This document shows positions 9,005-63,466 of a stretch of DNA of 64,000 bases, piece after piece. The stretch comes from Candidatus Oxydemutatoraceae bacterium (GTDB taxonomy: Bacteria > Pseudomonadota > Gammaproteobacteria > Poriferisulfidales > Oxydemutatoraceae): assembly GCA_965218975.1 (NCBI GenBank), contig OZ244717.1, positions 234,205 through 298,204 on the forward strand, given 5' to 3'. The translations under genes and the position numbers were made by a program. Numbering within the stretch: position 1 is the first letter of the stretch; each line of letters begins with the position of its first letter. Under the pieces are notes generated by a model. It made no database searches and was not told the origin of the DNA. It saw nothing but the letters and a program-made list of their open reading frames with translations.

Positions 9005-9008
9005 AAAA

Positions 9009-10560: not shown

Positions 10561-10626
10561 GGTGTATCTCCTATCGTTGAAGAAATATTACCATGAATAC
10601 TTACTTGTGTCAACTATATAATCACG

Positions 10627-10830: not shown

Positions 10831-11031
10831 GTAGAGTTTCTCAATCAGTCATTGTACAATGCAAGGTTTATATTCGTGGTCGTACCACGAATAGAACATA
10901 AAGCACAAGTCCCTATGTTATTATTTCGTTCGTAATGAAGATTGCTGTTTTAGCATATAAATTATTGCTTATACATAACTTCGGCATTACATGATGCCTC
11001 TTTATAAGTACACTGATGCCCGTTTTTTAGG

Positions 11032-46557: not shown

Positions 46558-47748
46558 TTATTTTTTACTTGAAGATGTACCGGATAGCTTGTTCAATGCT
46601 TTATCTATTAAGGCTATTGCCTCATCAATGTTTTGATCGGAAGTATTAAATCCAAGACTGAATCTGATTGACGACTCAGCCTCATCACTTGTCAACCCTA
46701 TGGCTTTGAGAACATGAGATGGCTCTTGAGTGCCCGAAGCGCATGCCGAACCGATTGATGCCGCAAGACGTGGTTGCAACACATTCAGGATATCATGTGC
46801 TGTAAACCCCTTGAATCCGATGTTGGCATTGCCCGGGTGTCTGTATTCGACAGGGGGGCCGCACAGCGTCATGGGCCATGACAACGCCAACAGTTTGTCG
46901 ACAAATCGGTCCCGGTGTCTGCACAATTGTTCACGCTTATTCCTTGCTTGATCAGAACATAAGTATTCTGCTGCCGCTCCCATTCCAACGCATAACGGTG
47001 TAGGCAAAGTTCCGGAACGCAGTCCGTTCTGTTGTCCGCCACCGTAGATCAGAGGTTCAATGCTTTCTTGTAAGTCACGACGGATATAGAGCGCGCCAAT
47101 TCCCTTGGGACCATATATTTTATGCCCTGAAAGACTCAACAGGTCGGTATCATTTGCAAAGTTTTGCATATCTATCGCAATAGGCGCCTGAGCGGCATCA
47201 CAATGAAAGATGGCGCCGGATTGTCTGATTAAGCCGGATAAATTCGCGATATCCTGTATGGTTCCTATCTCATTGTTTACCGCCATAATCGAGACGATCA
47301 GCACGTCATCAGTGAGGCTGCGTTCCAAGTCCGGCAGTAAGATGTGTCCGGATTCGTCAACCGGAAGCAATTCGACCTGAAAACCGAGCTGCTCGTTCAA
47401 TACGCGCCCGACGGCGAGCACACTCTTGTGCTCAATTGCGCTAAGAAGGATTTTTTTTCTTGCAGCGCCCTCTGCCGCCGCATGTTTTGCTAACCCTAGC
47501 AAAGCTAAATTGTTGGACTCGGTTGCCCCGGACGTGAACACGATTTCATCGGCATCGGCGGCGATCAAGCGGGCAACTTGCTGCGCCGCTTTTTCCACAG
47601 CGCGAAAACTTTCCCAACCAGGCGCATGATCTGCCGAATGCGGACTGGCATAGGATTCCGAGAAGTACGGACGCATTTCACGCAACACTCTGTCGGAAAC
47701 CGGCGTCGTTGCCTGATAGTCAAAATACAGATATTCTGATGCGTTCAT
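46558..47748 (-). CDS. sspA: Cysteine desulfurase (class V aminotransferase, NifS/IscS-like). Candidate SspA/DndA-type sulfur donor of the adjacent phosphorothioation module.
   Basis: PLP blocks LSLSGHKIYGPKGIGALYIR and TSGATESNNLAL. Active-site loop GSACASG. Start taken at MNASEYLYFDY (47748). Divergent from the DUF4007 gene. Confidence 0.7.
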   Translation of the reverse strand: MNASEYLYFDYQATTPVSDRVLREMRPYFSESYASPHSADHAPGWESFRAVEKAAQQVARLIAADADEIVFTSGATESNNLALLGLAKHAAAEGAARKKILLSAIEHKSVLAVGRVLNEQLGFQVELLPVDESGHILLPDLERSLTDDVLIVSIMAVNNEIGTIQDIANLSGLIRQSGAIFHCDAAQAPIAIDMQNFANDTDLLSLSGHKIYGPKGIGALYIRRDLQESIEPLIYGGGQQNGLRSGTLPTPLCVGMGAAAEYLCSDQARNKREQLCRHRDRFVDKLLALSWPMTLCGPPVEYRHPGNANIGFKGFTAHDILNVLQPRLAASIGSACASGTQEPSHVLKAIGLTSDEAESSIRFSLGFNTSDQNIDEAIALIDKALNKLSGTSSSKK

Positions 47749-47849
47749 CGGTAAGTCTTCAATCTTGAAATATCCTATAATACCAGAGACAGTCTTCAGG
47801 AATATAACCTTGAGACTATAATACATGTTCCGATAACAGGACGACGAAT

Positions 47850-48824
47850 ATGACACGACGCGGCCCCCTATGTAGACAGGATTACAAACCGCACTTTTTA
47901 GGACACGAAACATTTCCCCTGCGCTATGGGTGGCTGAAAAAAGTCTATGACCGTGTGTCCCGCACCGAGAGAAATAAAAACAACAAAGCCCTGTGTTGGG
48001 GTGATAACGCTATTGCCTTGTTTGGTGTCGGTAAAAATATGGTTGCGTCAATGCGCCATTGGTCAATTGCGGCGGGAATAATTGAAGAGCCTTTAGGCGC
48101 AAATAAGGTGATTACAACCAAGATTGGCCGACAACTGTTCGGCAACGGCGGCCTTGATCCTTACTTGGAGCACCAAACATCTCTATGGCTAATCCATTGG
48201 AAGCTGGCAACGGAGTGGAAAAAAAAGACCACTTGGTTTTGGGCTTTCAATCACTACTACGCCGTACAGTTTGAGCAGGATAAGTTTGTCAAAAGACTTG
48301 AGCGCCTGGCAAAACATCTCGGGTGGCCACATGCCGCACATAGGACCATCAAAAATGACGTTGTCTGTTTTATTCGAACCTATACGACTCATCCCCTTGC
48401 CTCAAAAACGGGATGCGATGATTTACTCGGGTCGCCCCTAGCAGAGCTAGGCCTCATAAAGCCGTTCTCTCGAAAGGGTGAGTTCAGATTTGTTCACGGC
48501 CCGAAATCAACCTTGGGCAAAGGCGCTTTTGTTTATGCTCTTCTTGAGTTTTGGTCAAATTTTTCTCCCGCTACTTCAACACTTTCGTTTGAGGCGATTA
48601 CCTACGAGCCCGGGTCGCCGGGACGCGCTTTTCTGCTTGATGAGAACGACGCGGCCGAGAGATTATCTGACATTGACGATATTACCGGCGGTGCGCTGCG
48701 GTGGTCGGAGACGGCAGGATTGAAGCAGGTCGTGCGGAACCCCGGCTTTGCGATAGATTCTGATTATGCTCTTCGGCTCATAAAAAATGATTATGACGAT
48801 TCTGCTTGCATGAAGGCAGCGTAG
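47850..48824 (+). CDS. sspB: DUF4007-like protein; candidate SspB of a single-strand DNA phosphorothioation system.
   Basis: N-terminal GHETFPLRYGWLKKVYD and the overall 324-aa size match my recollection of the DUF4007 family that defines SspB. It is first gene of an overlapping three-gene operon with a large P-loop ATPase and a PAPS-reductase-like protein. An HMM search is needed to confirm. Confidence 0.55.
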   Translation: MTRRGPLCRQDYKPHFLGHETFPLRYGWLKKVYDRVSRTERNKNNKALCWGDNAIALFGVGKNMVASMRHWSIAAGIIEEPLGANKVITTKIGRQLFGNGGLDPYLEHQTSLWLIHWKLATEWKKKTTWFWAFNHYYAVQFEQDKFVKRLERLAKHLGWPHAAHRTIKNDVVCFIRTYTTHPLASKTGCDDLLGSPLAELGLIKPFSRKGEFRFVHGPKSTLGKGAFVYALLEFWSNFSPATSTLSFEAITYEPGSPGRAFLLDENDAAERLSDIDDITGGALRWSETAGLKQVVRNPGFAIDSDYALRLIKNDYDDSACMKAA

Positions 48825-51800
48825 TGGCACTAATTGATCAAATTCATATCGCGCGGCGTTTCCAAAAATCAATCCGCATTGATGCCGATTTCGGCGAACG
48901 CGATGCGCTGCACGGATTTATATGCCCTCGGTCATCGGGGAATACTCTGCTATCCATGGCCCGGCACGTGTCGGAGACCAACCAAGGCGCTTTTACTTGG
49001 ACCGGTCCGTACGGCAGCGGAAAATCTAGTCTTATCGTTGCTTTAAGCGCATTGCTCGGCGGTAATCCGCATTTGCGAGAACAAGCCGCCGCGATTTTTG
49101 GCCGAACGCTTACTAATGCGATACGAGGAATGCTTCCGGCAGGGATGAAGGGTTGGCGGGTAGTGCCGGTGATAGGGAGGCGAGATGACCCTGTTGATGT
49201 TATCGGACGCACCTTAGAGACAACGGGGCTTGTCGCTCGCCGGCCTCGCGGCGGCTGGACCGAAGATCTTCTTATTACCAATTTGATGGAAGGCGCGACA
49301 AACAAGGTTTACGGCGGGTTGATCTTATTCGTTGACGAGATGGGAAAATTCCTTGAGGCGGCCGCACAAGACGAGGTGGATATTTATATTTTCCAGCAAC
49401 TTGCCGAAACCGCCTCGCGAAGCAACGGGCGACTCCTCGTCATTGGTATATTGCACCAGGCGTTTGAAGAATATGCGCACCGCTTGTCTTACGAAATGCG
49501 CGATGAGTGGGCCAAGATACAAGGACGCTTCATTGATCTTCCGGTTAACACGACCGGCGAAGAACAAATTGACCTTATTTCCCGCGCAATCGGAAACAAC
49601 CGCCGTGCCGGTAAACCGAGCGCGCCATCTGTAACCGTGGCACAGTCGGTATATCGCGGTCGCACCGGCGATGCTCGGCAATTAGCCCGGATGCTGGAAA
49701 ATTGCCGGCCGTTGCATCCTGTTGTCGCGTGTTTGCTCGGGCCGATATCGCGCCGGCGCTTTGGCCAAAACCAACGCAGTATATTTGGCTTTCTCAATTC
49801 AGCCGAACCTCACGGTTTTCAGGATTATCTGCGCACCGCAAACGGAAACAGTCGCTACGGGCCCGAAAAGCTTTGGGATTATTTGCAGACAAATCTCGAG
49901 CCGTCCATTCTCGCCTCGCCGGACAGTCATCGATGGGCATTTGCGGCGGAAGCCATAGAGCGCTGTGAGTCTGTCGGGGGAGATATCTTCCATGTCAATT
50001 TATTAAAAACGATCGCGGTTATCGATCTTTTTAAGGAACGATCGGGACTCGTAGCCGGTTTCGATCTGCTTAAATCATGTTTTCCCGGTATCACGGCAAA
50101 ATCTTTAAAGCAAGGTCTAAAACGGCTGGACGATTGGTCGTTGACCGTATTCAAAAAATTTCAGGATGCATACGCCGTATTTGCCGGCAGCGACTTTGAT
50201 ATTGACCGGGCTGTCGGCAAGGCATTGGAGGAAATTGACGAAATTGATTTTGCCGCACTGAAATCGTTGGCGGGGCTTCAGCCGATTCTTGCCAAGCGCC
50301 ACTATTACGAAACCGGAGCAATGCGCTGGTTTGACGTAGATATCACTTCGGCGTGTGATGTTGCGGAATCCGTAGCTCGGTTCGAAACGAAAAACGATGT
50401 GATCGGTCAGTTCCTGTCGGTAATCCCGACAAAAGGAGAAGATGAAGATACGGTTAAAAAATTGTGCCGCGACGCAGCAAAGTCGCACGGTCAATGGGGC
50501 ATCATCGTCGGGTTTTCCGAGTACTCCCGGGCTGTTGTTGCCCTCGCGCGCGAGCTGCTGGCGACGGATAAAGTAAATAACGAATCTCCCGAGTTGGCGG
50601 GCGATACCGTTGCGCGCCGCGAAGTGTCCGCCCGTCTTGCTGAGTTGCAAGCCCTGCTTGAGCGCGAGCTGAATAAGTCTTTTGACCGAGCCGAATGGTA
50701 TCGCAAACATTGCGTTCCCAAGCCGTATCGCCGAGCCGATTTGAATAATCTGGTTTCTAAGCTTGCCGATAAGCGCTTTGATCAGTGCCCCAAGATTCGT
50801 AACGAACTTTTAAATAGACAAAAACCTTCCGGCAGCGCCGCCGGCGCGCGGAATGCCTTGTTACGTTGTATGGTCCGGAACGAGGGCAAGCCTCGCCTCG
50901 GAATAGAGGGCTACCCTGCTGAAGGCGGTTTGTTCGCATCTATACTCGAGACGACAGGCCTGTATTCCGAAGCGCGTGCAGGAAAATGGCATTTTACGGC
51001 ACCACCCCAAGGCAAGACTGACAAGTGCAGGATATTTCCTATGTGGAATGCGGCTGTCCGACACATCAAAAAAAATAATCAGCGTCCCGTGCCGGTATCG
51101 GAACTCTACGACAAGATTTGGTCTCAACCGCCCTACGGGGTCAAGGCGGGATTGGTGCCCGTTTTATCCGTTGCATTTATATTGTCGCAGCGTAACAACG
51201 TAGCGGTATATCGCGAGAGTATTTTTCGTGCCCGTTTTGACGATATTGACATGGAATATATGGTCAAGAACGCTGCGGCCATACAGTTGCGCTGGATGAG
51301 GCTCAACAGTACGTCGCGCCGCTTATTGTCCGATATGACCGAGGTCGTGCGCGACTTGAACAAGAACAACAAACTGCTTCATCCGGAGCCGATTGACGTG
51401 GCGCGCGGTTTGGTTGCAATTTACGAACGATTGCCTCAGTGGGCTAAGCGCACGATGAGGCTCTCGGCAAACGCGATCAGAGTGCGCGATATTTTTAAGC
51501 ACGCATACGACCCTAATAAATTCTTGTTTGACGATATTCCTACATTGTCGGAAGGGAAGAGGACGGGCCCTTCAGGCGCAAAAGCTATTCGGAAAATTGT
51601 TTCCTTGGTAAATGAAGGCTTGCAAGAGCTTGTGCAGGCCTATCCTTTGATGCTCCGTCGTATGCGCGACGTTATGTTGGCAGAATTGCAGGTTCCGAAC
51701 GCATCAAGGCAATCTCTTGCGGAATTAAGAGACCGAGCTACCAATATAAAAGAGTTGGCGGGTGATTTCCGTCTGGATGCTTTTATCGGGAGAATCGCCC

Positions 51801-52225
51801 GATACGACGGCAGCGACGCCGGATTTGAGGGGATTGCCAGTCTTGCAGCGAATAAACCGCCTCGCGACTGGGTTGATCCGGATTTGAACCGCGCCGCAAT
51901 AGAGATTGCGGACATGGCGCAGAAGTTTTTAAGAGCCGAAACTTTTACCCGTATCCGCGGACGGCCTGAGAAACGCCAGGCCATGGCTGTCTTTATCGGC
52001 GTGAAGGGGCGACCCGTGCCTTTGCTGGAAGAGTTTGATGTCATTGACTCCGACCGAGCGGCAATTGATGATCTTATTGAGCATGTCTCTGCCGTGCTTG
52101 AGACGGTTGATACAAATAGCCGGAGTATCGTATTGGCCGCATTGGCCGAACTTGGCGCCCGGTATATGCAAAAGCCGGACCAAGCCAAGCGAAAAAGGAA
52201 GAACGGAAAACCTACCGATGCCTGA
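48806..52225 (+). CDS. sspC: Large P-loop NTPase (1139 aa); candidate SspC.
   Basis: Walker A WTGPYGSGKSSLIVAL. Walker B LILFVDEMGKFLE. The start overlaps the DUF4007 gene and the end overlaps the PP-loop gene. No transmembrane segments. Confidence 0.55.
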   Translation: MHEGSVVALIDQIHIARRFQKSIRIDADFGERDALHGFICPRSSGNTLLSMARHVSETNQGAFTWTGPYGSGKSSLIVALSALLGGNPHLREQAAAIFGRTLTNAIRGMLPAGMKGWRVVPVIGRRDDPVDVIGRTLETTGLVARRPRGGWTEDLLITNLMEGATNKVYGGLILFVDEMGKFLEAAAQDEVDIYIFQQLAETASRSNGRLLVIGILHQAFEEYAHRLSYEMRDEWAKIQGRFIDLPVNTTGEEQIDLISRAIGNNRRAGKPSAPSVTVAQSVYRGRTGDARQLARMLENCRPLHPVVACLLGPISRRRFGQNQRSIFGFLNSAEPHGFQDYLRTANGNSRYGPEKLWDYLQTNLEPSILASPDSHRWAFAAEAIERCESVGGDIFHVNLLKTIAVIDLFKERSGLVAGFDLLKSCFPGITAKSLKQGLKRLDDWSLTVFKKFQDAYAVFAGSDFDIDRAVGKALEEIDEIDFAALKSLAGLQPILAKRHYYETGAMRWFDVDITSACDVAESVARFETKNDVIGQFLSVIPTKGEDEDTVKKLCRDAAKSHGQWGIIVGFSEYSRAVVALARELLATDKVNNESPELAGDTVARREVSARLAELQALLERELNKSFDRAEWYRKHCVPKPYRRADLNNLVSKLADKRFDQCPKIRNELLNRQKPSGSAAGARNALLRCMVRNEGKPRLGIEGYPAEGGLFASILETTGLYSEARAGKWHFTAPPQGKTDKCRIFPMWNAAVRHIKKNNQRPVPVSELYDKIWSQPPYGVKAGLVPVLSVAFILSQRNNVAVYRESIFRARFDDIDMEYMVKNAAAIQLRWMRLNSTSRRLLSDMTEVVRDLNKNNKLLHPEPIDVARGLVAIYERLPQWAKRTMRLSANAIRVRDIFKHAYDPNKFLFDDIPTLSEGKRTGPSGAKAIRKIVSLVNEGLQELVQAYPLMLRRMRDVMLAELQVPNASRQSLAELRDRATNIKELAGDFRLDAFIGRIARYDGSDAGFEGIASLAANKPPRDWVDPDLNRAAIEIADMAQKFLRAETFTRIRGRPEKRQAMAVFIGVKGRPVPLLEEFDVIDSDRAAIDDLIEHVSAVLETVDTNSRSIVLAALAELGARYMQKPDQAKRKRKNGKPTDA

Positions 52226-53048
52226 AAAGCATGTTTTAGGATTATCCGGCGGCAGAGACAGCGCTGCGTTGGCTGTTTACATGCGGCAACATTATCCCGA
52301 GCTTGAGTTGGAATATTTCTTTACCGATACCGGCAAAGAATTACCCGAAGTTTATGAGTATCTAGGACGGTTGGAAGGGTTTCTCGGGCAGCCGATTTTG
52401 CGCCTTAATCCGGATCGCGATTTTGACTTCTGGTTAAAGCAATATGACGGTTTCCTTCCTTCTCCTCAAACGAGATGGTGCACGAGACAATTAAAACTTC
52501 GTCCGTTTGAAGACTGGATTCGACCGATGCTTGAAAACGGAACAAAAGTGTATAGTTACGTCGCTATTCGCGGGGATGAGGCGTATAGAAAAGGGTATTC
52601 TCCTAAATACGAGAATTTGAAAATCAAATTGCCTTTTAAGGAGGCAGGTATAGACAAAGCCGGGGTGCTTGAAATTCTTGACGGTGCCGGGCTCGGCTTG
52701 CCCGAATATTACTCATGGCGGACTAGGAGCGGGTGCACGTTTTGTTTCTTTCAGCAGAAAATTGAGTGGGTGCGGCTGAAGGAGCGGCACCCGGACGCAT
52801 TTGAAGAAGCCAAGGCATACGAGAAAGACGCCGTTAACCACGGTTCCCCTTTCACCTGGAGTCAAGGTGAGTCCTTAGAAGAGCTGTCACAGCCGGAGCG
52901 TATTGACCAGATCAAAGAAGAACATGCGCGACGTCTTCTGCGCTTGAGGGGTAAAGTGCAGAATAATCCTTTGCGTTCCGATAGCGAGCCCTTGGATATT
53001 GACGATTTATACGGCAAGGCAAAAGTTTGCTTGGCATGCCATAAGTAG
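52218..53048 (+). CDS. sspD: PAPS-reductase / PP-loop ATP pyrophosphatase family protein; candidate SspD (DndC-like).
   Basis: PP-loop motif VLGLSGGRDSAALAV immediately after the start at MPEKHV (52218, 8-nt overlap with the previous gene). C-terminal CxxC motif CLACHK. Confidence 0.65.
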   Translation: MPEKHVLGLSGGRDSAALAVYMRQHYPELELEYFFTDTGKELPEVYEYLGRLEGFLGQPILRLNPDRDFDFWLKQYDGFLPSPQTRWCTRQLKLRPFEDWIRPMLENGTKVYSYVAIRGDEAYRKGYSPKYENLKIKLPFKEAGIDKAGVLEILDGAGLGLPEYYSWRTRSGCTFCFFQQKIEWVRLKERHPDAFEEAKAYEKDAVNHGSPFTWSQGESLEELSQPERIDQIKEEHARRLLRLRGKVQNNPLRSDSEPLDIDDLYGKAKVCLACHK

Positions 53049-53191
53049 ACTTTGACTGCTTTTCGGAAATAGTTGGTAGGCACTTCGGCAACGGCTTACT
53101 TGGGGATGTTCTTGCGGGGAGGTGTGCTTGAATCTTGAAACCGAACGGATTGTCGCATACGGACGTGCGGGCACACCCACAGCGATGCAAC

Positions 53192-53662
53192 TTAGTGCTT
53201 TCTCAGCATCTTGTCGATTGCCTCCGACAGATTCCAGATCGGTTCCGCACCACCGTCCTTCAGCATCTCCAAAACATGCGGCAGCCCGGCCGCGGCAAGG
53301 CCGTTTGCGAGCGTCATCATCTTTCGCGGTTCTGACACAATATCTACGTTACCTGATTTGCTGATCGCGATTAGCATGAGCGTGTGAATACGCCACGGAT
53401 CGCTGATGAATATCGACCCGTCAACTATCTTTTTTATCTTCTTCCGCGTACTGTGTTTCGCAGTGTCAGCAGGTTTTAAGCCTAGTCGTGCCGCGATGCA
53501 GACGGACAGAAACCAGAGATCAACCATGCGTGGAAACGGGCTTTGGTCTATTACGGTGTCGGCTTCGGCGCTTCGGCAATATCGCGTGAACGCCTCGTGG
53601 AATTCCACTGGCACGTTGATGTCAATGGTTTGAAAAGGATTGAAATATCGGTCTGCCATCAT
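53192..53662 (-). CDS. Hypothetical 156-aa protein; last gene of the four-gene operon convergent with sspBCD.
   Basis: The ORF starts 7 nt after the stop of the SMC-like gene. No recognisable family. Confidence 0.5.
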   Translation of the reverse strand: MMADRYFNPFQTIDINVPVEFHEAFTRYCRSAEADTVIDQSPFPRMVDLWFLSVCIAARLGLKPADTAKHSTRKKIKKIVDGSIFISDPWRIHTLMLIAISKSGNVDIVSEPRKMMTLANGLAAAGLPHVLEMLKDGGAEPIWNLSEAIDKMLRKH

Positions 53663-53668
53663 CGCCTC

Positions 53669-55810
53669 CTATGACGCCACGCCTGGTTCGACTCGCGGGT
53701 CTGGGCGGCGCCGGCAGAGCTGGCATTCGTCCTTGTGATCGCATTCGCAGCGGAGGACCCTGCGTTCTTCAATGCCGGGATCGTTCACGAGCATTTTCGG
53801 GTAGTGTGCGGAGTTCGTCAGGGTAAATACCACTCCGGCGGACTGATCGATAATTTCCTCGCAGCCCGTAATTTCATCGTGTGTCAGGAACAGAATCAGT
53901 TGCGCGCTTTCACGTACGGATGTGTGCAGGACCGAGCGCTTCACAAAGCCACTCGTCATGCCGAGCGGTGTGTCAATCACGTTCGGCGCTTCAACCTCGC
54001 TCACTTTCGTTAGGGCGAGGATGAATGCGAGCGTCAGCGCGCGGCGAGATGCGCCGTTTAGGTCGCGGTCGGGGTTGAGTGTCCTGTCATTCGGGCCGTA
54101 GGCGATGATGTCAAATTCCCGGCTGATCTCAGCGCGCTGGATAATCGCGCCCTGTTTCGGGTCCGCGCCGATCATTTCCAGGAATATGTTGTTCATTAAA
54201 TCGCTGACCTTCCGCAATTCCTTGTTGGTGATTCGCTCATACGCGCTTTGCAGCACCTTCCTGACGTCTTGCGTGACTTCAAGTTCGGCCCGAACCCGCG
54301 CTCCACTTTTCTGTTTGCGCAAGAGGCGGTCGCGCTCGGTTTCTAACTTTATGCGATCGCGGTGCAGCTCGGTGAGCTGGGTTTTGATGGCCGACTGTTC
54401 CGACAGGTAGTGGTCACGCCGGTCATTGAACTGGCGGCGCGCTTTGCGCAGACCCTGGATATCCGTGTTGGGAAGCGAGTCGAGTTGCAATTCCAGCGCA
54501 CGCAACTTCCGACCTTCTTCGTTGCGCAGGGTTCCGAGATCGTCGCGCCGCTCGGCGACTTTCTTGTAGTCCTCAAGCCATCCACTTGACCCGGCGTCAC
54601 CGCTGGTCTGTAAGGGCTTCGCGTAGTACAACAGTTCGGCGACGACCTCCTGGATTTCTTCGGGATGCCGGCTGTCGTTGATCAGCTTCTGAATACGTGC
54701 GCGGCGCTTGTCGCCGCCGGGACCGTCGGGTTCCAACGTTTCGCCGCAGATGCAGATTTCCGCTGAGAGACATCCCTCAAGCACCGGGATCGTTATGTAC
54801 GGGATCTTGCCCTGCTCGCGCAGCTCTTCGAGTTTGTCGAATGCCTGACCGAGCATCGGCGCAAGCAGGTCGGTTGCAACGGACCGGCTGCGAAACAGTG
54901 CTGAGTGTTCCTCGTTCGCCACCTTGACCCGTCTGTCGAGCTGACGGATCATGTTCTTCGCATATTCGAGGTCCTTGCGCAGCTTTTCCTTGTCACCTTT
55001 CTGGAGGGCCGCGTCAATCTCGCGGTCTCTCTTATTGACGTATTCATCGAACGTCCTGAACTGTTGTTTGGCGTCCGCAAGAGCGTCTTCGGATTTCTTG
55101 CAGTCGTTCTCTAGCGTTTCGAGGCGCGAGGCGGTCTTGTTCAGCTCACTGCCGGACCCGAGTTGCTTTGCTTGCTTATTCACTTCCGCCGCCGATTTGC
55201 CCACATGCTTGATCGCGTCGTTGATTACTTCGAGTCCCAGAAGAGAACATATCGCCTGTTCCACGCGGTCGCGTTTGGTGGATAGGATAACATCCGCTTC
55301 GATGAAGCTTAGCGCGCGGTCACCATCTGTGAAAAAGACCTCCCTTAGCTGCGGTGGCAGGTTTTCGTTGATGAACGCTTCTGGGGTGCTCATGGGACTT
55401 GCGCCGGTATCGTTCAGCTGAAGCAGGTCCACGGTCGAGGCGGAACGACGGGCCTGGCTGTCTATATCCTCGAACGCCGAGCGTACGAGGCGATAGTGCC
55501 GGCGGGTTTCGCGCCATTCCTCGCCGACTCGTCGGTGGGTCGTCAGCTCGAATTCAACCACGGCCATGATCGGGACCCGCTTCCCATCGCTCGCGACCCA
55601 GTCAATGGGATGCAGCCGAAATCCCTCGCCCTTGTCGGGCAGCGCCCCGTCGCCGTAAAGTGCCCATTGAAGGCCGTGCAGGATCGTGGTTTTCCCGGAT
55701 TCGTTCGCGGCGCGGATAACGGTTAGTTTTTTGTCGGGGTCGGTGGAGAATTCCAGCTCCAGATCGCGGAGCAGCCGGAAGTTCTTAAATTCGGCGCGGA
55801 GCAGCTTCAT
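53669..55810 (-). CDS. SMC/RecF/DndD-like AAA ATPase with a long central coiled-coil and Cys clusters.
   Basis: N-terminal Walker A IRAANESGKTTILHGLQWALYG. C-terminal signature/D-loop region RRALTLAFILAL...LILFLTHDE. About 400 aa of heptad-rich sequence between them. Central CLSAEICICGETLEPDGPGG and C-terminal CECDHKDECQLC Cys clusters. Start taken at MKLLRAEF (55810), which overlaps the upstream small-ORF stop as ATGA. Confidence 0.65.
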   Translation of the reverse strand: MKLLRAEFKNFRLLRDLELEFSTDPDKKLTVIRAANESGKTTILHGLQWALYGDGALPDKGEGFRLHPIDWVASDGKRVPIMAVVEFELTTHRRVGEEWRETRRHYRLVRSAFEDIDSQARRSASTVDLLQLNDTGASPMSTPEAFINENLPPQLREVFFTDGDRALSFIEADVILSTKRDRVEQAICSLLGLEVINDAIKHVGKSAAEVNKQAKQLGSGSELNKTASRLETLENDCKKSEDALADAKQQFRTFDEYVNKRDREIDAALQKGDKEKLRKDLEYAKNMIRQLDRRVKVANEEHSALFRSRSVATDLLAPMLGQAFDKLEELREQGKIPYITIPVLEGCLSAEICICGETLEPDGPGGDKRRARIQKLINDSRHPEEIQEVVAELLYYAKPLQTSGDAGSSGWLEDYKKVAERRDDLGTLRNEEGRKLRALELQLDSLPNTDIQGLRKARRQFNDRRDHYLSEQSAIKTQLTELHRDRIKLETERDRLLRKQKSGARVRAELEVTQDVRKVLQSAYERITNKELRKVSDLMNNIFLEMIGADPKQGAIIQRAEISREFDIIAYGPNDRTLNPDRDLNGASRRALTLAFILALTKVSEVEAPNVIDTPLGMTSGFVKRSVLHTSVRESAQLILFLTHDEITGCEEIIDQSAGVVFTLTNSAHYPKMLVNDPGIEERRVLRCECDHKDECQLCRRRPDPRVEPGVAS

Positions 55811-56051
55811 GAGTCCGGTTTCTCTGTTCCCGCGTCTTGACCGCGTTGAGACGCGAGGAACCGTGCAGCGGCATTGCACTTGTTGTTTATCTTCTGTTGT
55901 ATGTTTGTCGCTGAGATGCGATGCTCTCGTTCATATTCCCGAATATCGTTAATCACTTTGAAGATCTCTTTCCTATAGCCCTCACACCGTTCCTCTATCC
56001 CGGTGCACTCCTCAAGGATGATCGAGATTATCTTTTTGTCGTTTAGCGGCA
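55807..56051 (-). CDS. Small hypothetical protein (81 aa), translationally coupled between the helicase and the SMC-like gene.
   Basis: Strong RBS GGAGAGGGAGGacaaATG on the minus strand. The TGA stop overlaps the ATG of the next gene. The protein is charged and helical, with no family. Confidence 0.5.
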
Positions 56052-56068
56052 TTTGTCCTCCCTCTCCT

Positions 56069-58237
56069 TTACAAGTACGCGGCGTCAACCATTCTGTCAA
56101 TCGTCGCCAGCGGCCCGTCCGTCCGGCCCGCGTTTTTCGCTAGCCGGGCAAACTCCTGCGCCCGATGCAATTCTGAACGTACAAGGCTACGTGCATCAGG
56201 GTCAAGCTCCTCTTCCATCTTCGGCGGCAAAGCTAGTAAATCGTGAATAATGCTGTGCGTTTTGCCAATATTACTACAAGTGCGTAAAAGGCGTCCGCGC
56301 CGTTGCACCCATTGCCGTTCGACCGTCGTGCTCGCGAGAATGAACGCCTTGCATATCTGCGGGATATTCACTCCTTCGTCGAGCACGCGCTTTGCCGTCA
56401 GCATCTGAATTTCCCCGTCCTGGAAGGACTTGATGATCCGCTTAGTCTGCTCGCGGTTCGCCGTCTCTTCGGCGGTGAGCTGGTGGAATAAGATATTCCG
56501 GTCGCGCAGCAACCGATTCACGTCGTCGAGCTGATCCGGTCCCTTGTCGGAGGTGTAAACGAGCGTGTGCCGCAGGTTGCCGGTATCCTCTTTATCAAGC
56601 AGAGTCCTCAGCATCGAAACCTTGCCGGAGGCGGTTTCCAGCAACGCGCGCCGATCCCGCAAAAGCTTGGCGAGGTACTCGTCCGGCTTATCTCCGTCGC
56701 TGCGCCAAGCATTCCGCTTGATTTTGCCCGTCAGCTCGAACCAGTCGTCCATTTCGGTGTCTGTCAGGGACACGGGATGGACGTAGTAATCGTATTCGAC
56801 AAGACAGCGGCCGATGGCCTCTTCTAGTGCGAAACGGAAAACAATGGGTCCGAAGAATCCGAATAGCGCTTTTGTCCCTTCCTCGTCATACTGACGTATC
56901 GGTGTGGCCGAGAGACCGAGACGATGTTCAAAGAATTCCGGCGGATTCCTGACAAACGAGGCGCGGCCTAGATTGTGAGCTTCATCAGCAATGAGTAGGC
57001 GGTCGCAATCAAACTTCTCAACTGCGACGAGAAATTCTGGAGTGCACAACGTATCGTGACTGACGACGATGACTTCAACATCCGACAGATTGGTACGCAG
57101 TCGCCGTTTCAGTTTTTGCAGCTCGCGCGCACGCTTCGCCGCACCGCCAGCTGTCGTGAGATTGACCGGCTTTATCCCGAACGGAACGATTTCATTGCAC
57201 CACTGTTCAATCAATGGTACATAGGGCGCGGCGACGACGATGAATAGCGGTCTGCGCTCTTCGTAGAGACGGTGTGCGCTGATCATTGAAGTGATTGTCT
57301 TCCCTGAGCCGGTCGCCATTTCCAGAATGCCTCGATACCGGGTCTCGCACCATGCATTGACTGCCTTTCCCTCGTGTTTGAATGGCCCGTCTTCGTATCG
57401 AAGCCAGCTTGGTATTACGAATTCCGTCTTCGGGACCGGAACGGGCTCGTACAATGCGGGCTCTTCCGCAATGCCGGTTGCGCGCACGTAGAGAGCACGC
57501 AGATCATCTTCGGTCGGAGGCGATTCGGAGCCGTAGGTGCGCAAGAGACGCTGTCTGATGGCATCTGGCATCGCGATAACGATACAGTTGTCGTCCTTGT
57601 TTTCCCACAGTCGGCGGAACTCGTAATGAAGCTTATCGGTGATGTAATGTTGATTCGAGTCCTGCCATGACCTTGATATGGTGGTCTGTTCGATGTTCTT
57701 CCGAATGCCTGCAAAGGTTACGTTGCTCGAACCGTGCGCCGCGACGACATCGCTACCGTTCTCGAAGAGCCAAACCTTGGGATGAAAGAGAGCATCTTTC
57801 ATCAGGGCGGTCCTGATTTCGATTCGGTGCTTCCGAACCAGCCACGTAAGGCATTTTAGCGTGTAGCGTTGTAGTAGGTCTTCGGTGACGATCAGCTCTT
57901 CTAGAATCTTGTCGGCGACCTCTTCGGCTGACTTCAACCCGTCCTCAATTGCGGCTTTATCCTCGGCACGGAGCAGGGGACTCACAACAAGCCGGAAACT
58001 ATTTTGCGACCCTGCGATGTAGGTCGCTAGACCCGGGGCAAGCGAAGCTAGTACTTCGCTTGAAAAGAAACCGGTCATGCAATCTACGCTATCCGCTGCC
58101 CGGAATCCCGGAATCAACACTTCCTCGGCAAATGGGTCTGCCGGCAGCATGTAAAGCGGACGGGCCGACCCCAGCGACCGAAGCGTTTGTGTCACCACAG
58201 TCGCAGTTTTGTCCTGTATTGCCGTATCATGCACCAC
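56069..58237 (-). CDS. Fusion of a PLD-family (HKD) nuclease domain and an SF2 DEAD/DEAH-box helicase; a restriction-type effector.
   Basis: HKD motif FHPKVWLFENGSDVVAAHGSSNVT at about aa 150. Helicase motif I LEMATGSGKTITS, motif II LLIADEAHNLG, motif III SATPIRQ, motif VI QWVQRRGRLLR. 722 aa. Confidence 0.7.
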   Translation of the reverse strand: MVHDTAIQDKTATVVTQTLRSLGSARPLYMLPADPFAEEVLIPGFRAADSVDCMTGFFSSEVLASLAPGLATYIAGSQNSFRLVVSPLLRAEDKAAIEDGLKSAEEVADKILEELIVTEDLLQRYTLKCLTWLVRKHRIEIRTALMKDALFHPKVWLFENGSDVVAAHGSSNVTFAGIRKNIEQTTISRSWQDSNQHYITDKLHYEFRRLWENKDDNCIVIAMPDAIRQRLLRTYGSESPPTEDDLRALYVRATGIAEEPALYEPVPVPKTEFVIPSWLRYEDGPFKHEGKAVNAWCETRYRGILEMATGSGKTITSMISAHRLYEERRPLFIVVAAPYVPLIEQWCNEIVPFGIKPVNLTTAGGAAKRARELQKLKRRLRTNLSDVEVIVVSHDTLCTPEFLVAVEKFDCDRLLIADEAHNLGRASFVRNPPEFFEHRLGLSATPIRQYDEEGTKALFGFFGPIVFRFALEEAIGRCLVEYDYYVHPVSLTDTEMDDWFELTGKIKRNAWRSDGDKPDEYLAKLLRDRRALLETASGKVSMLRTLLDKEDTGNLRHTLVYTSDKGPDQLDDVNRLLRDRNILFHQLTAEETANREQTKRIIKSFQDGEIQMLTAKRVLDEGVNIPQICKAFILASTTVERQWVQRRGRLLRTCSNIGKTHSIIHDLLALPPKMEEELDPDARSLVRSELHRAQEFARLAKNAGRTDGPLATIDRMVDAAYL

Positions 58238-58749: not shown

Positions 58750-60012
58750 ATGGCGAATAAACATCATGATACGCCCATGCTTGACGAACTGGAGAATGGC
58801 CCTTGGCCAAGTTTTATCTCCGGAATTAAACGGTTGAGAGATGAGCATCCTGATCAACGTGTCAGCGGTGTTGCCGACGATTTACTTGGGCAACTTGAAC
58901 ACTCCTATGAAACACGTAAAGGTTATTGGAAGGGTGGTACGGTTAGCGTATTTAGGTATGGCAGCGGTATCATTCCGCGGTTTTCGGAAGTAGGTCATGC
59001 TTTCCCAAAATCCAAAGAATTTCATACTCTGCGTGTACAACCTCCTGCAGGAAATTATTACACAACAGACATGTTGCGTAACCTTGCCGAAAGCTGGGAG
59101 AAATGGGGTTCGGGGCTAGTAACTTTTCATGGTCAGACCGGCAATATTATGTTTATCGGCGCAAATACTGAAAACACCCAACACTTTTTTGATGAAATCA
59201 ATGATTATGGTTGGGACTTGGGCGGTGCGGGCCCTTGTGTGCGGACGGGTCAGTCGTGTGTGGGTTCGGCGCGTTGCGAGCAGTCCAACATTGATGAAAT
59301 GAGAATTCATCGCACTTTGCTGAATAACTTTACCGATGATGTGCATCGTCCTTCTCTCCCGTATAAATTCAAGTTCAAAGTTTCAGGTTGCAGCAATGAT
59401 TGTATGAACTCGATTGAGCGTGCCGATTTCTCGATCATCGGAACTTGGTGCGATGATATGAAAGTAGATCAGAACGAGGTAAAAGCTTTCCTTAAGAAGA
59501 AAGGGCATCAGTATATGATTGACAACGTGATTACACGCTGCCCGACAAAAGCTTTGTCGCTGAGCGATGATGACGAACTAAAAGTTGATAACCGAAACTG
59601 CGTGCGATGTATGCACTGCTTGAACGTTATGCCGAAAGCTTTGTCGCCGGGCGATGATAAGGGTATTACCGTCCTGATCGGAGGAAAGCGCACGCTTAAA
59701 ATCGGCGACATGATGGGAACGGTGATTATGCCGTTTATGAAGCTGAAAACAGAGGAAGATTACGAGAAGCTTGTTGAGCTTGCTGAGGAGACGATTGATT
59801 TCTGGGCTGAAAACGGTTTGGAACATGAGCGTTGCGGCGAGATGATCGAACGAATCGGTTTGGTTAACTTCCTAGAGGGTATCGGTGTTGAAGTTGATCC
59901 GAATATGATTACCGACCCGCGTACCAGTTCCTATGTGCGCACCGACGGCTGGGATGAAGAAGCGATCAAATGGCTACAGCGTAAAGCCGAGAATAAGCAA
60001 GCAGTTGCTTAG
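58750..60012 (+). CDS. dsrA: Dissimilatory sulfite reductase alpha subunit (reverse/oxidative type in this gene context).
   Basis: RBS GGAGGAGGtataagtaATG. Siroheme/4Fe-4S Cys motifs CVRTGQSCVGSARC and CSNDC. Ferredoxin-like insert CPTKAL...CVRCMHC. 420 aa, followed by dsrB, dsrEFH and dsrC. Confidence 0.85.
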   Translation: MANKHHDTPMLDELENGPWPSFISGIKRLRDEHPDQRVSGVADDLLGQLEHSYETRKGYWKGGTVSVFRYGSGIIPRFSEVGHAFPKSKEFHTLRVQPPAGNYYTTDMLRNLAESWEKWGSGLVTFHGQTGNIMFIGANTENTQHFFDEINDYGWDLGGAGPCVRTGQSCVGSARCEQSNIDEMRIHRTLLNNFTDDVHRPSLPYKFKFKVSGCSNDCMNSIERADFSIIGTWCDDMKVDQNEVKAFLKKKGHQYMIDNVITRCPTKALSLSDDDELKVDNRNCVRCMHCLNVMPKALSPGDDKGITVLIGGKRTLKIGDMMGTVIMPFMKLKTEEDYEKLVELAEETIDFWAENGLEHERCGEMIERIGLVNFLEGIGVEVDPNMITDPRTSSYVRTDGWDEEAIKWLQRKAENKQAVA

Positions 60013-60058
60013 GCGCAATCGCGGTACTACAATCAATAATTCATAAGGATACTTAAGA

Positions 60059-61135
60059 ATGCCAACACAACAACATCGTGAACCTATTGAATCCGGTTGC
60101 CCCGACGGGTTTCAGTACATGCATCCCGTGATGCGTAAGAATTATGGGAACTGGGCATACCATGAAGACCCGCGCCCGGGTGTTTTGCGTCACGTTTCTA
60201 AAGACGGCGATGCGATTTGGACAGTACGTGTCGGTACACAGCGGATTCTTGACGTTTTTACTTTACGCAAGCTATGTGACATCGGCGACAAATATGCCGA
60301 AGGCTATGTACGTTTTACGATTCGCAGCAATATCGAATACATGGTCGCAGACGGCACGAAAGTCGAGCCTTTAATTGTAGCGCTGGAAGCCGAAGGATTT
60401 GTCGTCGGCGGAACGAAAAACTCGGTAGCGATGATTTCTCATACTCAAGGGTGGTTGCATTGTGATATTCCCGGAACGGATGCTTCGGGTGTGGTAAAAG
60501 CAATGATGGATGAGTTAATCGAAGAATTCAAGGGCTGGAACATGCCGAACCGCGTGCATATAACGACTTCATGCTGCCAGATTAATTGCGGTGGACAAGG
60601 TGATATCGCAATCAATGTGCAGCACACTAAGCCGCCTAAAATCAATCATGATCTGGTTTCTAACGTTTGTGAGCGCCCGTCGGTGGTCGCGCGCTGTCCG
60701 GTTGCGGCGATTCGTCCGGCAATGGTTAACGGCAAACCCTCGTTAGAGGTGGATGAGAAGAAATGCATTTGTTGCGGTGCTTGTTATCCGCCGTGCCCCC
60801 CGATGCAAATTAACGATCCCGAACATACCAAACTTGCGATCTGGGTCGGCGGGAATCATTCCAATGCACGCGGCAAGCCTACGTTTCAGAAGTTGGTTGC
60901 CGCCGGGATTCCGAATAACCCTCCGCGCTGGCCGGAAGCGACTGCAATTGTTAAAAGTATTTTGCAAGTGTATCGTGAAGATGCCAAAGATTGGGAACGG
61001 ATAAATGATTGGATCGAACGAATTGGTTGGCCGCGTTTCTTTGAATTGACCGAGCTGCCGTTTACTAAATTTCATATTGATAATTGGTTGGGCGCACGTC
61101 AAAGTCTGAATGCTTCAGCCCACATTCGTTTCTAA
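60059..61135 (+). CDS. dsrB: Dissimilatory sulfite reductase beta subunit.
   Basis: Cys motifs CCQINCGGQGD and CPVAAI...CICCGACYPPCP. 358 aa. Directly follows dsrA. Confidence 0.85.
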   Translation: MPTQQHREPIESGCPDGFQYMHPVMRKNYGNWAYHEDPRPGVLRHVSKDGDAIWTVRVGTQRILDVFTLRKLCDIGDKYAEGYVRFTIRSNIEYMVADGTKVEPLIVALEAEGFVVGGTKNSVAMISHTQGWLHCDIPGTDASGVVKAMMDELIEEFKGWNMPNRVHITTSCCQINCGGQGDIAINVQHTKPPKINHDLVSNVCERPSVVARCPVAAIRPAMVNGKPSLEVDEKKCICCGACYPPCPPMQINDPEHTKLAIWVGGNHSNARGKPTFQKLVAAGIPNNPPRWPEATAIVKSILQVYREDAKDWERINDWIERIGWPRFFELTELPFTKFHIDNWLGARQSLNASAHIRF

Positions 61136-61163
61136 AATTAATCGTTAGTTGAAGGAATGAAGT

Positions 61164-61556
61164 ATGAAGTTTGGCGTTTTAGTCAACGAAGGACCTTATA
61201 CACACCAAGCTACGGATACCGCCTACCACTTCGTTAAAGCAGCATTGGAAAAAGGACACGAAATATTTCGGGTCTTTTTTTATCACGACGGCGTTAATAA
61301 CGGCACCCGTTTGATGGTGCCGCCTCAAGACGAACGCAATATCACGCAGCTTTGGAGCGAACTTGCTGAGAAGCATCAGCTGGATTTGGTCTTGTGCGTC
61401 GCCGCGGCACAAAGGCGCGGTATGCTGGATGCCGACGAAGCAAAGCGACATGGTAAAGATACGGATAACATCGCCCCCGGGTTTCGCATTTCCGGTTTGG
61501 GGCAGCTGATTGAAGCCGGGATACAATCCGATCGGCTAATCGTGTTCGGAGATTGA
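61164..61556 (+). CDS. dsrE: Sulfurtransferase DsrE.
   Basis: 130-aa DsrE/DsrF-fold protein in dsrEFH order after dsrAB. Conserved Cys in LCVAAAQRRG. Confidence 0.8.
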   Translation: MKFGVLVNEGPYTHQATDTAYHFVKAALEKGHEIFRVFFYHDGVNNGTRLMVPPQDERNITQLWSELAEKHQLDLVLCVAAAQRRGMLDADEAKRHGKDTDNIAPGFRISGLGQLIEAGIQSDRLIVFGD

Positions 61557-61978
61557 CCCGAATGCCCGCAAGCGGCCAAGTCAAGAAGTTCCTATACGTA
61601 AATCGGAAAGCGCCGTACGGAACAATTTATGCTTTGGAATCGCTTGAAGTTGTACTGACCGGTGCTGCGTTTGAGCAGGACGTTAGCCTTGCCTTTATTG
61701 ATGACGGCGTTTATCAGTTAAAAAAGAATCAAAACACGCAAGGCATCAACATGAAGAATTTTTCACCGACCTATAACGCTTTAGGCGATTACGATGTCCG
61801 TAAGGTGTACGTAGAAAAAGAGTCGCTGGAAATGCGTGGTCTAACCAAAAGTGATTTACTAGACCTAAAATACGAGGATGAAGATGACGATTGGACGGAA
61901 AAAGACTCTATCCGTATCGTCGATAAAGAAGAGCTCGCCGGCATTATGGATGGTCAGGACGTGGTGTTGAGTTTCTAA
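61553..61978 (+). CDS. dsrF: DsrF (DsrE/F-like subunit).
   Basis: 141 aa. Overlaps the dsrE stop. Position between dsrE and dsrH. Confidence 0.75.
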   Translation: MTRMPASGQVKKFLYVNRKAPYGTIYALESLEVVLTGAAFEQDVSLAFIDDGVYQLKKNQNTQGINMKNFSPTYNALGDYDVRKVYVEKESLEMRGLTKSDLLDLKYEDEDDDWTEKDSIRIVDKEELAGIMDGQDVVLSF

Positions 61979-61979
61979 C

Positions 61980-62288
61980 ATGTCAGTGTTGCACACCGTC
62001 AATAAGTCCCCTTTTGAGCGCAATACTGCCGCTTCGTGCTTGCGTCTGGCAAAGCTCGGTAGCGCTATTTTGTTTATTGAAGATGGAGTCACTGCCGCAT
62101 TAAAAGAGACCAAGTTTGCGCAAAAAATAATTGTTGCCGATAACCGTTTCAAATTTTATGTGCTTGTTTCGGATTTAATAGCGCGTGGTTTTGATGAAAG
62201 CAATATAATAACGGGAGTAACGGCTGTCGATTATGGCGGTTTTGTTGACTTGGTTGCCGAGTATGACAGTGTTCACGCTTGGCTGTAA
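61980..62288 (+). CDS. dsrH: DsrH.
   Basis: 102 aa. N-terminal MSVLHTVNKSPFERN..L is typical of DsrH/TusB. Position is dsrEFH. Confidence 0.75.
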   Translation: MSVLHTVNKSPFERNTAASCLRLAKLGSAILFIEDGVTAALKETKFAQKIIVADNRFKFYVLVSDLIARGFDESNIITGVTAVDYGGFVDLVAEYDSVHAWL

Positions 62289-62332
62289 AGTGAATTATTT
62301 ATTTCTTTAATTTAATATAGGAGAACGAAATC

Positions 62333-62665
62333 ATGGCTCTGGAAGTAGATGGTAAAAGCTATGAGACCGACGAAGAAGGATATCTCGCCAACCTCAGCGA
62401 TTGGAGACCTGAGTTGGCTACGGCAATGGCAAAAGCCGATAATGCCGAACTAAGTGAGAATCACTGGAAAGTAATTAACTTTTTGCGCGAGTACTATGAA
62501 GAATATCAAATCGCGCCGGCAGTTCGTGTTTTAACTAAGGCAATCGGCAAGCGGCTGGGTAAAGATAAAGGGAATAGCAAATACTTGTACGAATTGTTTC
62601 CGTACGGTCCGGCAAAGCAGGCTTGCAAATATGCGGGTCTGCCTAAGCCGACAGGTTGCGTTTAG
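62333..62665 (+). CDS. dsrC: DsrC, sulfur-carrier substrate of DsrAB.
   Basis: C-terminal conserved arm ...CKYAGLPKPTGCV with two Cys residues (penultimate Cys). 110 aa. Confidence 0.9.
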   Translation: MALEVDGKSYETDEEGYLANLSDWRPELATAMAKADNAELSENHWKVINFLREYYEEYQIAPAVRVLTKAIGKRLGKDKGNSKYLYELFPYGPAKQACKYAGLPKPTGCV

Positions 62666-62728
62666 TTATCGATATTCGATTATTACAGTGGTGCTCTCAG
62701 TTTTGAGAGCGGTGAGTTGAGAGGAAGC

Positions 62729-63466
62729 ATGTCGGTTATGACGGTTGTGTACACGGCGCTTTTTTACATTGCGACTGCGGTGTTAGTGTTCGGTAGCGGG
62801 TGGAAAATTTGGTGCTACATGCGTATCCCCGCACCTCTGATAATTCCCACGACACCCGCGCCGACAAGTCGACGAGGAGTTGTTTTTAGAATTTTCAAAG
62901 AAGTGGTTATGTTTGAGAGTTTGTTTAAATCAAACAAATGGATTTGGTTATTCGGTTGGTTGTTTCATTTCGGTTTATTTCTTGTTCTGCTACGTCACCT
63001 GCGTTATTTTACCGAACCGGTTTGGTTTTGGGTTGAGTGGCTGCAGCCATTCGGCAAGTACGCCTCGTTTATGCTTATAGCCGGTCTTGTCGGATTGTGG
63101 TTGCGTCGTCTGGTTGTAGATCGGGTGAGGTATATTTCTTCTCCCTCCGACCACTTAATGTTGTTATTGCTGTTTGCGATCGGCGTCAGTGGGATGATGA
63201 TGACTTTCGCTTTCAAAGTCGACATCGTTGCGACCAAAGCGTTTTTTGTCGGTTTAATGCGGTTCGACTTGCATCCTTTGCCTACCGACGGATGGATGAT
63301 TTTTCATATTACTTTGGTTGCTTTGCTGATGATGGTGTTTCCGATAAGCAAGCTTTTGCATGCACCGGGGCTGTTTTTTAGCCCGACACATAATCAAGTT
63401 GATAATCCGCGTGAGAAGCGTCATGTTACTGCGTGGGCATTAAAGCTTGAATCAAAGGCAAAATGA
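62729..63466 (+). CDS. dsrM: DsrM, membrane dihaem cytochrome b (NarI-like) of the DsrMKJOP complex.
   Basis: About 5 transmembrane helices with His residues in helices (HFGLFLVLLRHLRYF, HLMLLLLFAIG, HITLVALLMM, LLHAPG). Start taken at the ATG at 62729 with a GAGG RBS; the ORF-track start is a TTG at 62717. Confidence 0.75.
   Translation: MSVMTVVYTALFYIATAVLVFGSGWKIWCYMRIPAPLIIPTTPAPTSRRGVVFRIFKEVVMFESLFKSNKWIWLFGWLFHFGLFLVLLRHLRYFTEPVWFWVEWLQPFGKYASFMLIAGLVGLWLRRLVVDRVRYISSPSDHLMLLLLFAIGVSGMMMTFAFKVDIVATKAFFVGLMRFDLHPLPTDGWMIFHITLVALLMMVFPISKLLHAPGLFFSPTHNQVDNPREKRHVTAWALKLESKAK

Follow-up and report, generated by a model that had tools for sequence, protein, structure and literature searches.

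PbeABCD-type genes beside sspABCD in a Candidatus Oxydemutatoraceae bacterium, a candidate restriction arm of Ssp phosphorothioation

We analysed a 64,000-nucleotide (nt) stretch of contig OZ244717.1 from a Candidatus Oxydemutatoraceae bacterium, hereafter the window, to whose positions all coordinates refer unless a related locus is named. Four minus-strand open reading frames (ORFs), tightly packed at 53192–58237, converge there tail-to-tail with the phosphorothioate (PT) modification genes sspBCD, the end of sspD lying at 53048 and that of the fourth gene at 53192. To judge from their sequences, the four genes represent a diverged version of PbeABCD, an anti-virus module that is already known, and they are called pbeA, pbeB, pbeC and pbeD below (Table 1). 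An initial annotation of this DNA had described four tightly packed minus-strand genes facing sspBCD tail-to-tail, with an ATGA stop/start overlap between the gene of 81 amino acids (aa) and the ATPase gene; both descriptions were borne out, by the ORF listing and by direct reading of the DNA, respectively. Specifically, pbeA ends in TAA and is followed after 16 nt by pbeB, the TGA of pbeB overlaps the ATG of pbeC by 4 nt (ATGA, 55810–55807), and 6 nt separate pbeC from pbeD. The ATG of pbeB has a strong Shine-Dalgarno sequence (AGGAGAGGGAGG) just 5' of it; the longest ORFs are 97 aa from a TTG for pbeB and 736 aa from a GTG for pbeC. All four genes are full length in comparison with dozens of homologues and are therefore real genes, not chance ORFs. 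Their compact A-B-C-D order is identical across all related loci.

The PbeABCD cassette described by Xiong et al. 2019 (PMC6459918) encodes a PbeA with PLD, ResIII and helicase domains, a 66-aa PbeB, a PbeC called an SMC-like ATPase and a 152-aa PbeD. Rakesh, Aravind and Krishnan 2024 (PMC10853773) named it the 'CxC ABC-ATPase-DndE anchored system'; in their annotation an HKD and SF2 protein (PbeA) is followed by a small protein (PbeB), a zinc-hook ABC ATPase of the 'CxC' kind (PbeC) and a clade-2 DndE (PbeD). These assignments were reproduced on the window proteins, for PbeB as regards size and position. The 722-aa PbeA has the expected HKD plus SF2 (ResIII/DEAD) architecture and matched the PADLOC PbeA models at 1e-190 over nearly its full length. 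In Pfam it matched ResIII, DEAD and Helicase_C, together with a weak PLDc_2 match below threshold. Its match to NCBIfam TIGR04095, 'DNA phosphorothioation system restriction enzyme', reached 364 bits (1e-108), and PbeA of the window clade falls under the curated cut-off of 600. Invariant or nearly so among 13 homologues are H152-x-K154 and G169SSN, as well as the SF2 motifs I (GSGKT310), II (DEAH418), III (SAT443) and VI (QRRGR645). The first gene had been read earlier as a PLD(HKD) nuclease fused to an SF2 DEAH helicase, which was right in outline, with HxK...GSxN and motifs I, II, III and VI all present.

PbeC matched many PADLOC PbeC models (best 1e-53) and DndD (4e-29), and its Pfam match was AAA_23. 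It carries a Walker A motif (G39KT), a signature-like GASRR, a Walker B motif (DTPLG613) and THD643, together with two conserved Cys clusters, namely an invariant C353-I-C355 in mid-protein and a C-terminal C688xCx5CxxC699. Among 63 distinct complete PbeC sequences, 62 have the CxC hook and 60 the C-terminal Cys4. The hook motif CICGE, which DndD lacks, is common to PbeC of the window and to the Dnd-linked and haloarchaeal PbeC. PbeC thus shows the features of a coiled-coil ABC ATPase that is a sister of DndD and bears a CxC, a putative zinc hook, at its apex. By these motifs we place the window ATPase in the DndD-related 'CxC' ABC clade, in which a zinc-hook-like CxC takes the place of a hinge; such ATPases have been assigned to this clade instead of SMC (PMC10853773). 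The initial annotation had called it an SMC/RecF-like ATPase with Cys clusters. The coiled-coil ATPase and the two Cys clusters stood, but the SMC/RecF label did not: no SMC hinge or RecF match was found, the best matches were PbeC, DndD and AAA_23, and the CxC motif occupies the hinge position. Like the Rad50/SbcC zinc-hook ATPases and DndD, PbeC has a split ABC head, a long coiled coil and an apical Cys motif, and it matched SbcC and DndD weakly. It differs from them in its CxC hook, as against CxxC, and, unlike Rad50/SbcC, it lacks an Mre11/SbcD partner and pairs with a double ribbon-helix-helix (RHH) protein and an HKD-helicase.

PbeD gave no meaningful sequence-family match in Pfam, PADLOC, NCBIfam or PDB, whether searched as a single protein or with shallow and deep profiles. 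A profile search of 1.84 billion representatives gathered a PbeD family of 264 members, and the confident AlphaFold2 model built on an 83-member alignment (predicted local distance difference test score, pLDDT, 94.8) contains two strand-helix-helix units. The family profile aligned with 'DNA phosphorothioation-associated protein 4', which in a dnd-linked operon stands where PbeD would (probability 94.5%, E 7.5e-8), and with haloarchaeal PbeD (probability 96.7%, E 4.4e-10); no alignment was obtained with canonical DndE. On the model and these profile comparisons, the fourth gene is predicted to encode a DndE-like fold homologous to PbeD, and a DndE cognate with two RHH repeats thus lies directly after the ATPase. 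The window protein also has a 4-residue insertion, KKIK, relative to 31 homologues (53417–53428, residues ~75–78), a local duplication (...RKKIKKIVDG...) in the loop that precedes the second RHH strand. PbeB had no family match in Pfam, PADLOC or NCBIfam. A homologue of 72–83 aa fills the same slot in most related loci; the protein is helical and 46–78% identical within the clade, and its size and position between pbeA and pbeC fit the small protein of ~60–80 aa described for the system. By hhalign it matched haloarchaeal PbeB weakly (E 2e-4, probability 46%) and showed no similarity to Dnd-linked bacterial PbeB.

We identify the operon as PbeABCD because of the PADLOC matches of PbeA and PbeC, the PbeD homology, and the gene order and sizes; a standard PADLOC run would label the window genes PbeA and PbeC. 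The initial annotation had held that the composition was unfamiliar and could not be placed in a described family, and PbeABCD was missing from the PT partners that it listed as known. The profile searches that it proposed refute this view (PADLOC PbeA 1e-190 and PbeC 1e-53, with PbeD homology) and place the operon as PbeABCD, that is, they found the clear homology to a characterised system that it had named as counting against its proposal. DndCDEA-PbeABCD and the window operon share the A-B-C-D order, similar sizes (722/81/713/156 aa), an HKD plus SF2 PbeA, a small PbeB between PbeA and PbeC, a coiled-coil PbeC with CICGE, a DndE-like PbeD fold and adjoining PT-modification genes. They differ in the partner, which in the window is SspABCD (single-strand PT, SspB/SspC machinery) and not DndCDEA. 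Compared with Dnd-linked and haloarchaeal Pbe, moreover, the window proteins show ~30% PbeA and 22% PbeC identity, PbeD kinship at the level of profile and fold only, and an extra C-terminal CxCx5CxxC in PbeC that is missing in two outgroups. No dndC, dndD or dndE adjoins the operon; its neighbours are sspA–D, ssp genes likewise adjoin pbe in 64 related loci, and no Dnd model matched elsewhere in the window.

The restriction modules known to accompany Ssp do not account for the operon. SspABCD-SspE and SspABCD-SspFGH have the same sspA–D modification module with a restriction module beside sspD (Xiong 2020; Wang 2021, PMC8092258). SspE, however, is a single DUF262-DUF1524 protein, without HKD-helicase, CxC ABC ATPase or DndE-like protein, and none of the four window proteins matched DUF262 (GmrSD_N) or DUF1524 (GmrSD_C). 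SspFGH comprises three genes, with a Walker A motif in SspF, SspG, and an FtsK/SpoIIIE-like C-terminus in SspH (PMC8092258), and likewise lacks an HKD-helicase, CxC ATPase and DndE-like protein; the window has four genes including an SF2 plus HKD protein, and these gave no FtsK-like Pfam domain and no SspF, SspG or SspH match in PADLOC. Elsewhere in the window, neither SspE nor SspFGH was matched, and tblastn with the genuine SspE of the related locus L017 returned nothing. DndFGH is also a multi-gene PT-linked restriction module with ATPase and translocase activities, but its proteins are unrelated to Pbe, with no sequence homology (PMC6459918), and no DndF, DndG or DndH model was among the PADLOC matches of the four proteins. 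For Lamassu and Gabija, no LmuA/B/C or GajA/B model matched PbeA or the two small proteins at E up to 10, and none was among the 25 strongest of the 82 PADLOC families listed for PbeC.

On their PADLOC matches, the neighbouring genes are bona fide sspA, sspB, sspC and sspD. The likely sspD start overlaps the sspC stop by 8 nt, and the PADLOC match begins at residue 65 of the long sspD ORF. sspA is divergent from sspB, and its longest ORF (46558–47913, 451 aa) extends 64 nt into sspB. Since the profile matches begin at residue 63 of this ORF, the true start is probably Met56 (47748), leaving a 101-bp divergent promoter region between sspA and sspB. The slot between sspD and pbeD holds no cargo in the window, and its content varies in related loci.

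Table 1 Features of the ssp-pbe region (window coordinates)
Feature	Position	Strand	Description
sspA / IscS-type cysteine desulfurase	46558..47748	-	PADLOC SspA 4e-127; NCBIfam IscS, DndA ~1e-105
sspB	47850..48824	+	DUF4007; PADLOC SspB 9.5e-101
sspC	48806..52225	+	BrxC/PglY-like ATPase; PADLOC SspC E = 0, 1318 bits
sspD	52218..53048	+	PAPS-reductase-type sulfur-transfer enzyme; likely ATG 52218; PADLOC SspD 4e-136
convergent intergenic gap, sspD stop to pbeD stop	53049..53191	.	143 bp, ORF coordinates
pbeD	53192..53662	-	156 aa; DndE-like double RHH DNA-binding protein (predicted)
pbeC	53669..55810	-	713 aa from ATG; coiled-coil ABC ATPase, DndD-related 'CxC' clade
pbeB	55807..56052	-	81 aa from ATG; small helical protein
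pbeA	56069..58237	-	722 aa, GTG start; HKD (PLD-type) nuclease domain + SF2 DEAH helicase/translocase

The pairing of pbe with ssp recurs well beyond the window. Close homologues with 60–82% PbeA identity, drawn from genome records and encoding-contig look-ups, belong to Alpha- and Gammaproteobacteria, Opitutales, Bryobacterales, Rhodothermales, Vicinamibacterales and Bacillota; of the 15 intact loci in this set, 13 have sspBCD within 10 kb. A metagenome scan reaching down to 37% PbeA identity added 80 loci, giving 97 non-redundant loci in all (cited by L numbers). The available flank contains sspC or sspD in 64 of the 97; the figure is 51 of 60 where at least 5 kb is available on one side and 27 of 31 where at least 5 kb is available on both sides, the latter over a PbeA identity range of 37–82%. 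The four ssp-less loci with full flanks are L007, with a decayed pbeC and no pbeD, L008, with a truncated pbeA, L005 and L079. The modules are convergent, as in the window, in 32 loci, and co-directional in 30, with sspD ending 6–300 nt before pbeA. On the Sphingomonadaceae plasmid CP099618.1 (L104:2766–13864), sspA-B-C-D-pbeA-B-C-D form a single-strand row of eight abutting or overlapping genes (for example sspD at 8108–8941 and pbeA at 8938–11109), which on its sequence looks like the clearest case for co-transcription of ssp and pbe. In L006 and L018, PbeA at 73–79% identity is paired with SspC at 26–28%, and across linked loci SspC identity spans 26–67%. The linkage, like the protein identities and the motif conservation, was observed directly. 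Because it persists across divergent ssp lineages, the ssp and pbe modules appear to have recombined and yet stayed linked, which argues for functional coupling; pure island hitch-hiking is judged unlikely, since there are two layouts and the ssp lineages diverge. The neighbourhood comparison suggested by the initial annotation shows an adjacency that recurs in two layouts and several phyla, and supports its proposal of a functional partnership with the adjacent ssp genes, which is very probable. Its reading of the operon as a defence-type module of nuclease-helicase and coiled-coil ATPase is supported as well.

We consider it probable that the operon is a PbeABCD-type defence module of a clade that habitually lies beside SspABCD and not DndCDEA. 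The next relatives in the plasmid collection have ~30–33% PbeA identity. Of the two outgroups, L105 carries pbe beside dndC-D-E-A, its PbeA being annotated as the PT restriction enzyme, and L106, a haloarchaeon, carries pbe beside DNA methyltransferases. The C-terminal Cys4 of PbeC is present in 60 of the 61 PbeC sequences of the Ssp-linked group and in neither outgroup (Dnd-linked and haloarchaeal), which makes it a provisional clade marker, two outgroup members having been compared. In the reviews and primary papers found, up to 2026, the partners listed for Dnd in PT defence are DndFGH, PbeABCD and DndI, and those listed for Ssp are SspE and SspFGH. We found no description of an Ssp-Pbe pairing in the accessible literature to 2026, including Rakesh 2024 and BREX 2026, a body of literature of which coverage is incomplete.

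Further genes accompany pbe and ssp in some loci. In 17 loci, pbeD is directly followed by a GHKL pair that in most cases occupies the space up to sspD, as at L021:15146–19425; the others are L004, L006, L020, L022, L024, L028, L032, L036, L040–L042, L045, L051, L058, L079 and L088. It consists of a GHKL-type ATPase of 790 aa (HATPase_c_3) and a 636-aa protein for which no Pfam match is on record; PADLOC gave one weak REase_II match for the ATPase and none for its partner. The pair, not present in the window, may constitute a third module of Ssp-Pbe islands, as yet uncharacterised. At L017:15092–17395 this slot contains a genuine SspE (PADLOC 2.5e-207), so that SspE and PbeABCD flank one sspBCD, an arrangement also possible for SspE and SspFGH. 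DndB-like genes occupy the pbe-ssp slot at L016:15116–16378 and L023:15686–18017, the latter together with an HNH gene, and L010:15025–17059, in a Halioglobus integrative and conjugative element (ICE), holds a DUF262/NsnA-like gene and a Ser/Thr kinase. In a Bacillota metagenome-assembled genome (L018:4574–9956), SspB and SspC are fused into a 1520-aa protein, followed by sspD and, 45 nt downstream, by pbeABCD; a 1220-aa SMC_N/AAA_23 protein lies upstream.

By analogy with the characterised system, pbeABCD most likely serves as a restriction/exclusion arm for Ssp phosphorothioation. In the DndCDEA-PbeABCD system of Haloterrigena jeotgali A29, all four pbe genes and PT are needed for a protection of ~10^4-fold (PMC6459918). 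For the window operon, SspABCD would write a single-strand PT mark on host DNA, and PbeC, dimerised via its CxC zinc hook, would load on and scan DNA together with the double-RHH PbeD. DNA without the Ssp mark would be passed to PbeA, whose SF2 motor would translocate and whose HKD domain would nick or cut, unless the complex just blocks replication; with a single HKD motif, PbeA would need to dimerise. PbeB would act as an obligatory small regulatory or adaptor subunit. We infer the PT dependence, the complex formation and the kind of damage to invader DNA from this analogy, and 'PT-sensing', the label used in the initial annotation, is reasonable for the putative role of the operon.

Several points weigh against this interpretation. 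The PT dependence is known for only one Dnd-linked haloarchaeal system, and a haloarchaeal representative of that group shares ~30% PbeA and 22% PbeC identity with the window. Ssp uses SspB and SspC and has no DndD/DndE pair, and it is puzzling how a DndD/DndE-like sensor would read its mark. CxC systems frequently lack accompanying PT genes and may act autonomously, as argued by Rakesh et al. (PMC10853773), and among the present loci the intact L005, L010 and L079 have no ssp in their available flanks. No convincing terminator was found in 53049–53191, the counts of the promoter/terminator scan being near shuffle expectation. As for PbeA, the clade does not conserve the Asp expected from the canonical HxK(x)4D (13 homologues), and because of this and the sub-threshold PLDc_2 match a nuclease activity is not assured on sequence grounds; degradation of viral DNA was not detected for haloarchaeal Pbe (PMC6459918).

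Some of these points would suit an autonomous defence, in which pbeABCD works without reading PT and merely shares an island or mobile element with sspABCD. The restriction-partner model has been questioned in view of CxC/Pbe systems that lack PT genes (PMC10853773), and 320 of 553 PbeAC were without dndCD in the survey of Xiong et al. 2019 (PMC6459918), published a year before Ssp was described. The three intact loci without ssp, the haloarchaeal relative next to methylases, the many loci in ICE- or plasmid-like contexts and the unrelated type II restriction-modification (RM) genes in the window island point the same way. Nevertheless, we consider autonomy unlikely in the light of the adjacency in 27 of 31 well-flanked loci from 37 to 82% PbeA identity, the 30 loci with sspD a short distance upstream of pbeA on the same strand, the plasmid with eight abutting or overlapping genes, and a linkage that is kept although SspC identity ranges from 26 to 67%. 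In addition, two of the three exceptions have insertion sequence (IS) elements right after the operon: they lie immediately downstream in L005, and L010 ends in IS66, followed by the contig end.

Two further readings concern what the proteins do. Rakesh et al. put forward for the Pbe family a suicide or abortive-infection mechanism (PMC10853773), in which PbeB would be a labile inhibitor whose removal by a phage lets the PbeA HKD nuclease attack cell DNA, and PT would limit self-damage instead of marking invaders. The small size of PbeB, its translational coupling to PbeC and the lack of viral DNA cleavage in the haloarchaeal study (PMC6459918) are in keeping with such a mechanism. In that study, however, deletion of pbeB abolished protection without toxicity and loss of PT was not toxic either (PMC6459918), and PbeB of the present clade is well conserved and helical (46–78% identity) and not a fast-evolving disordered decoy, which renders the proposal decidedly improbable for the window operon. 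Even harder to credit is a modification accessory, in which PbeC-PbeD, as paralogues of DndD-DndE, target or regulate Ssp phosphorothioation with no restriction of invaders. PbeC is indeed DndD-like and PbeD DndE-like, Ssp lacks a DndE cognate (PMC10853773), and DndB-like regulator genes lie between pbe and ssp in some loci. Yet a nuclease-helicase whose motifs are intact goes with PbeC-PbeD in every case, SspABCD alone is sufficient for PT in published systems (PMC8092258), and in the literature such a partner is missing from the majority of sspBCD loci.

The ssp-pbe pair is part of an island (~41.7–58.3 kb) whose composition is foreign, within an otherwise housekeeping region, and in relatives the module is often found on ICE- or plasmid-like DNA. 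A type II RM pair at 41772–44094, with 34% GC as against ~47% in its surroundings, encodes a 303-aa endonuclease and a methyltransferase of 474 aa that is extended by a long stretch at its N-terminus; the pair appears to have entered this island as a separate acquisition. At 44754–46300, a degenerate integrase-core (rve) fragment (45266–45937) is bracketed by direct repeats, namely copies of 51–150 nt with a spacing of ~1.34 kb and 81–99% identity, and 21-nt tandem units (GCCGACAATCCGGCACAATCC); this looks like what remains of an IS or transposon, lying between the RM pair and sspA. No tRNA gene was found anywhere in the window. Directly beyond pbeA, at 58750–63466, follows a dsrA-dsrB-dsrE-dsrF-dsrH-dsrC-dsrM-like row (sulfite-reductase and DsrEFH/DsrC families), which suggests a sulfur-oxidising bacterium as the host.

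For annotation, the window operon should be recorded as pbeABCD and not as a new family; the four-gene module is already known, and the novelty is an Ssp partner for a divergent clade of it. That clade is provisionally marked by the PbeC Cys4 and by ~30% PbeA and 22% PbeC identity to Dnd- and methylase-linked Pbe. Whether SspABCD-PbeABCD stands as a distinct, undescribed type of PT defence, with a dedicated Pbe clade as the standard restriction/exclusion arm of Ssp, seems to us evenly poised. Since Ssp has no recognition pair of the DndD/DndE type, PbeCD would read the PT mark, or the resulting DNA state, independently of the writers. A conserved Ssp-Pbe pairing, if true, would plausibly explain part of the 'solitary' PbeAC (320/553) and of the 'orphan' sspBCD, 84% of which were without a known partner in Wang 2021 (PMC8092258). 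It would also provide an experimentally tractable bacterial Pbe, a family whose mechanism is disputed, and it sharpens two questions, that of DNA cleavage by Pbe and that of the way in which a mark made by unrelated enzymes is sensed by a DndD/DndE-like module.

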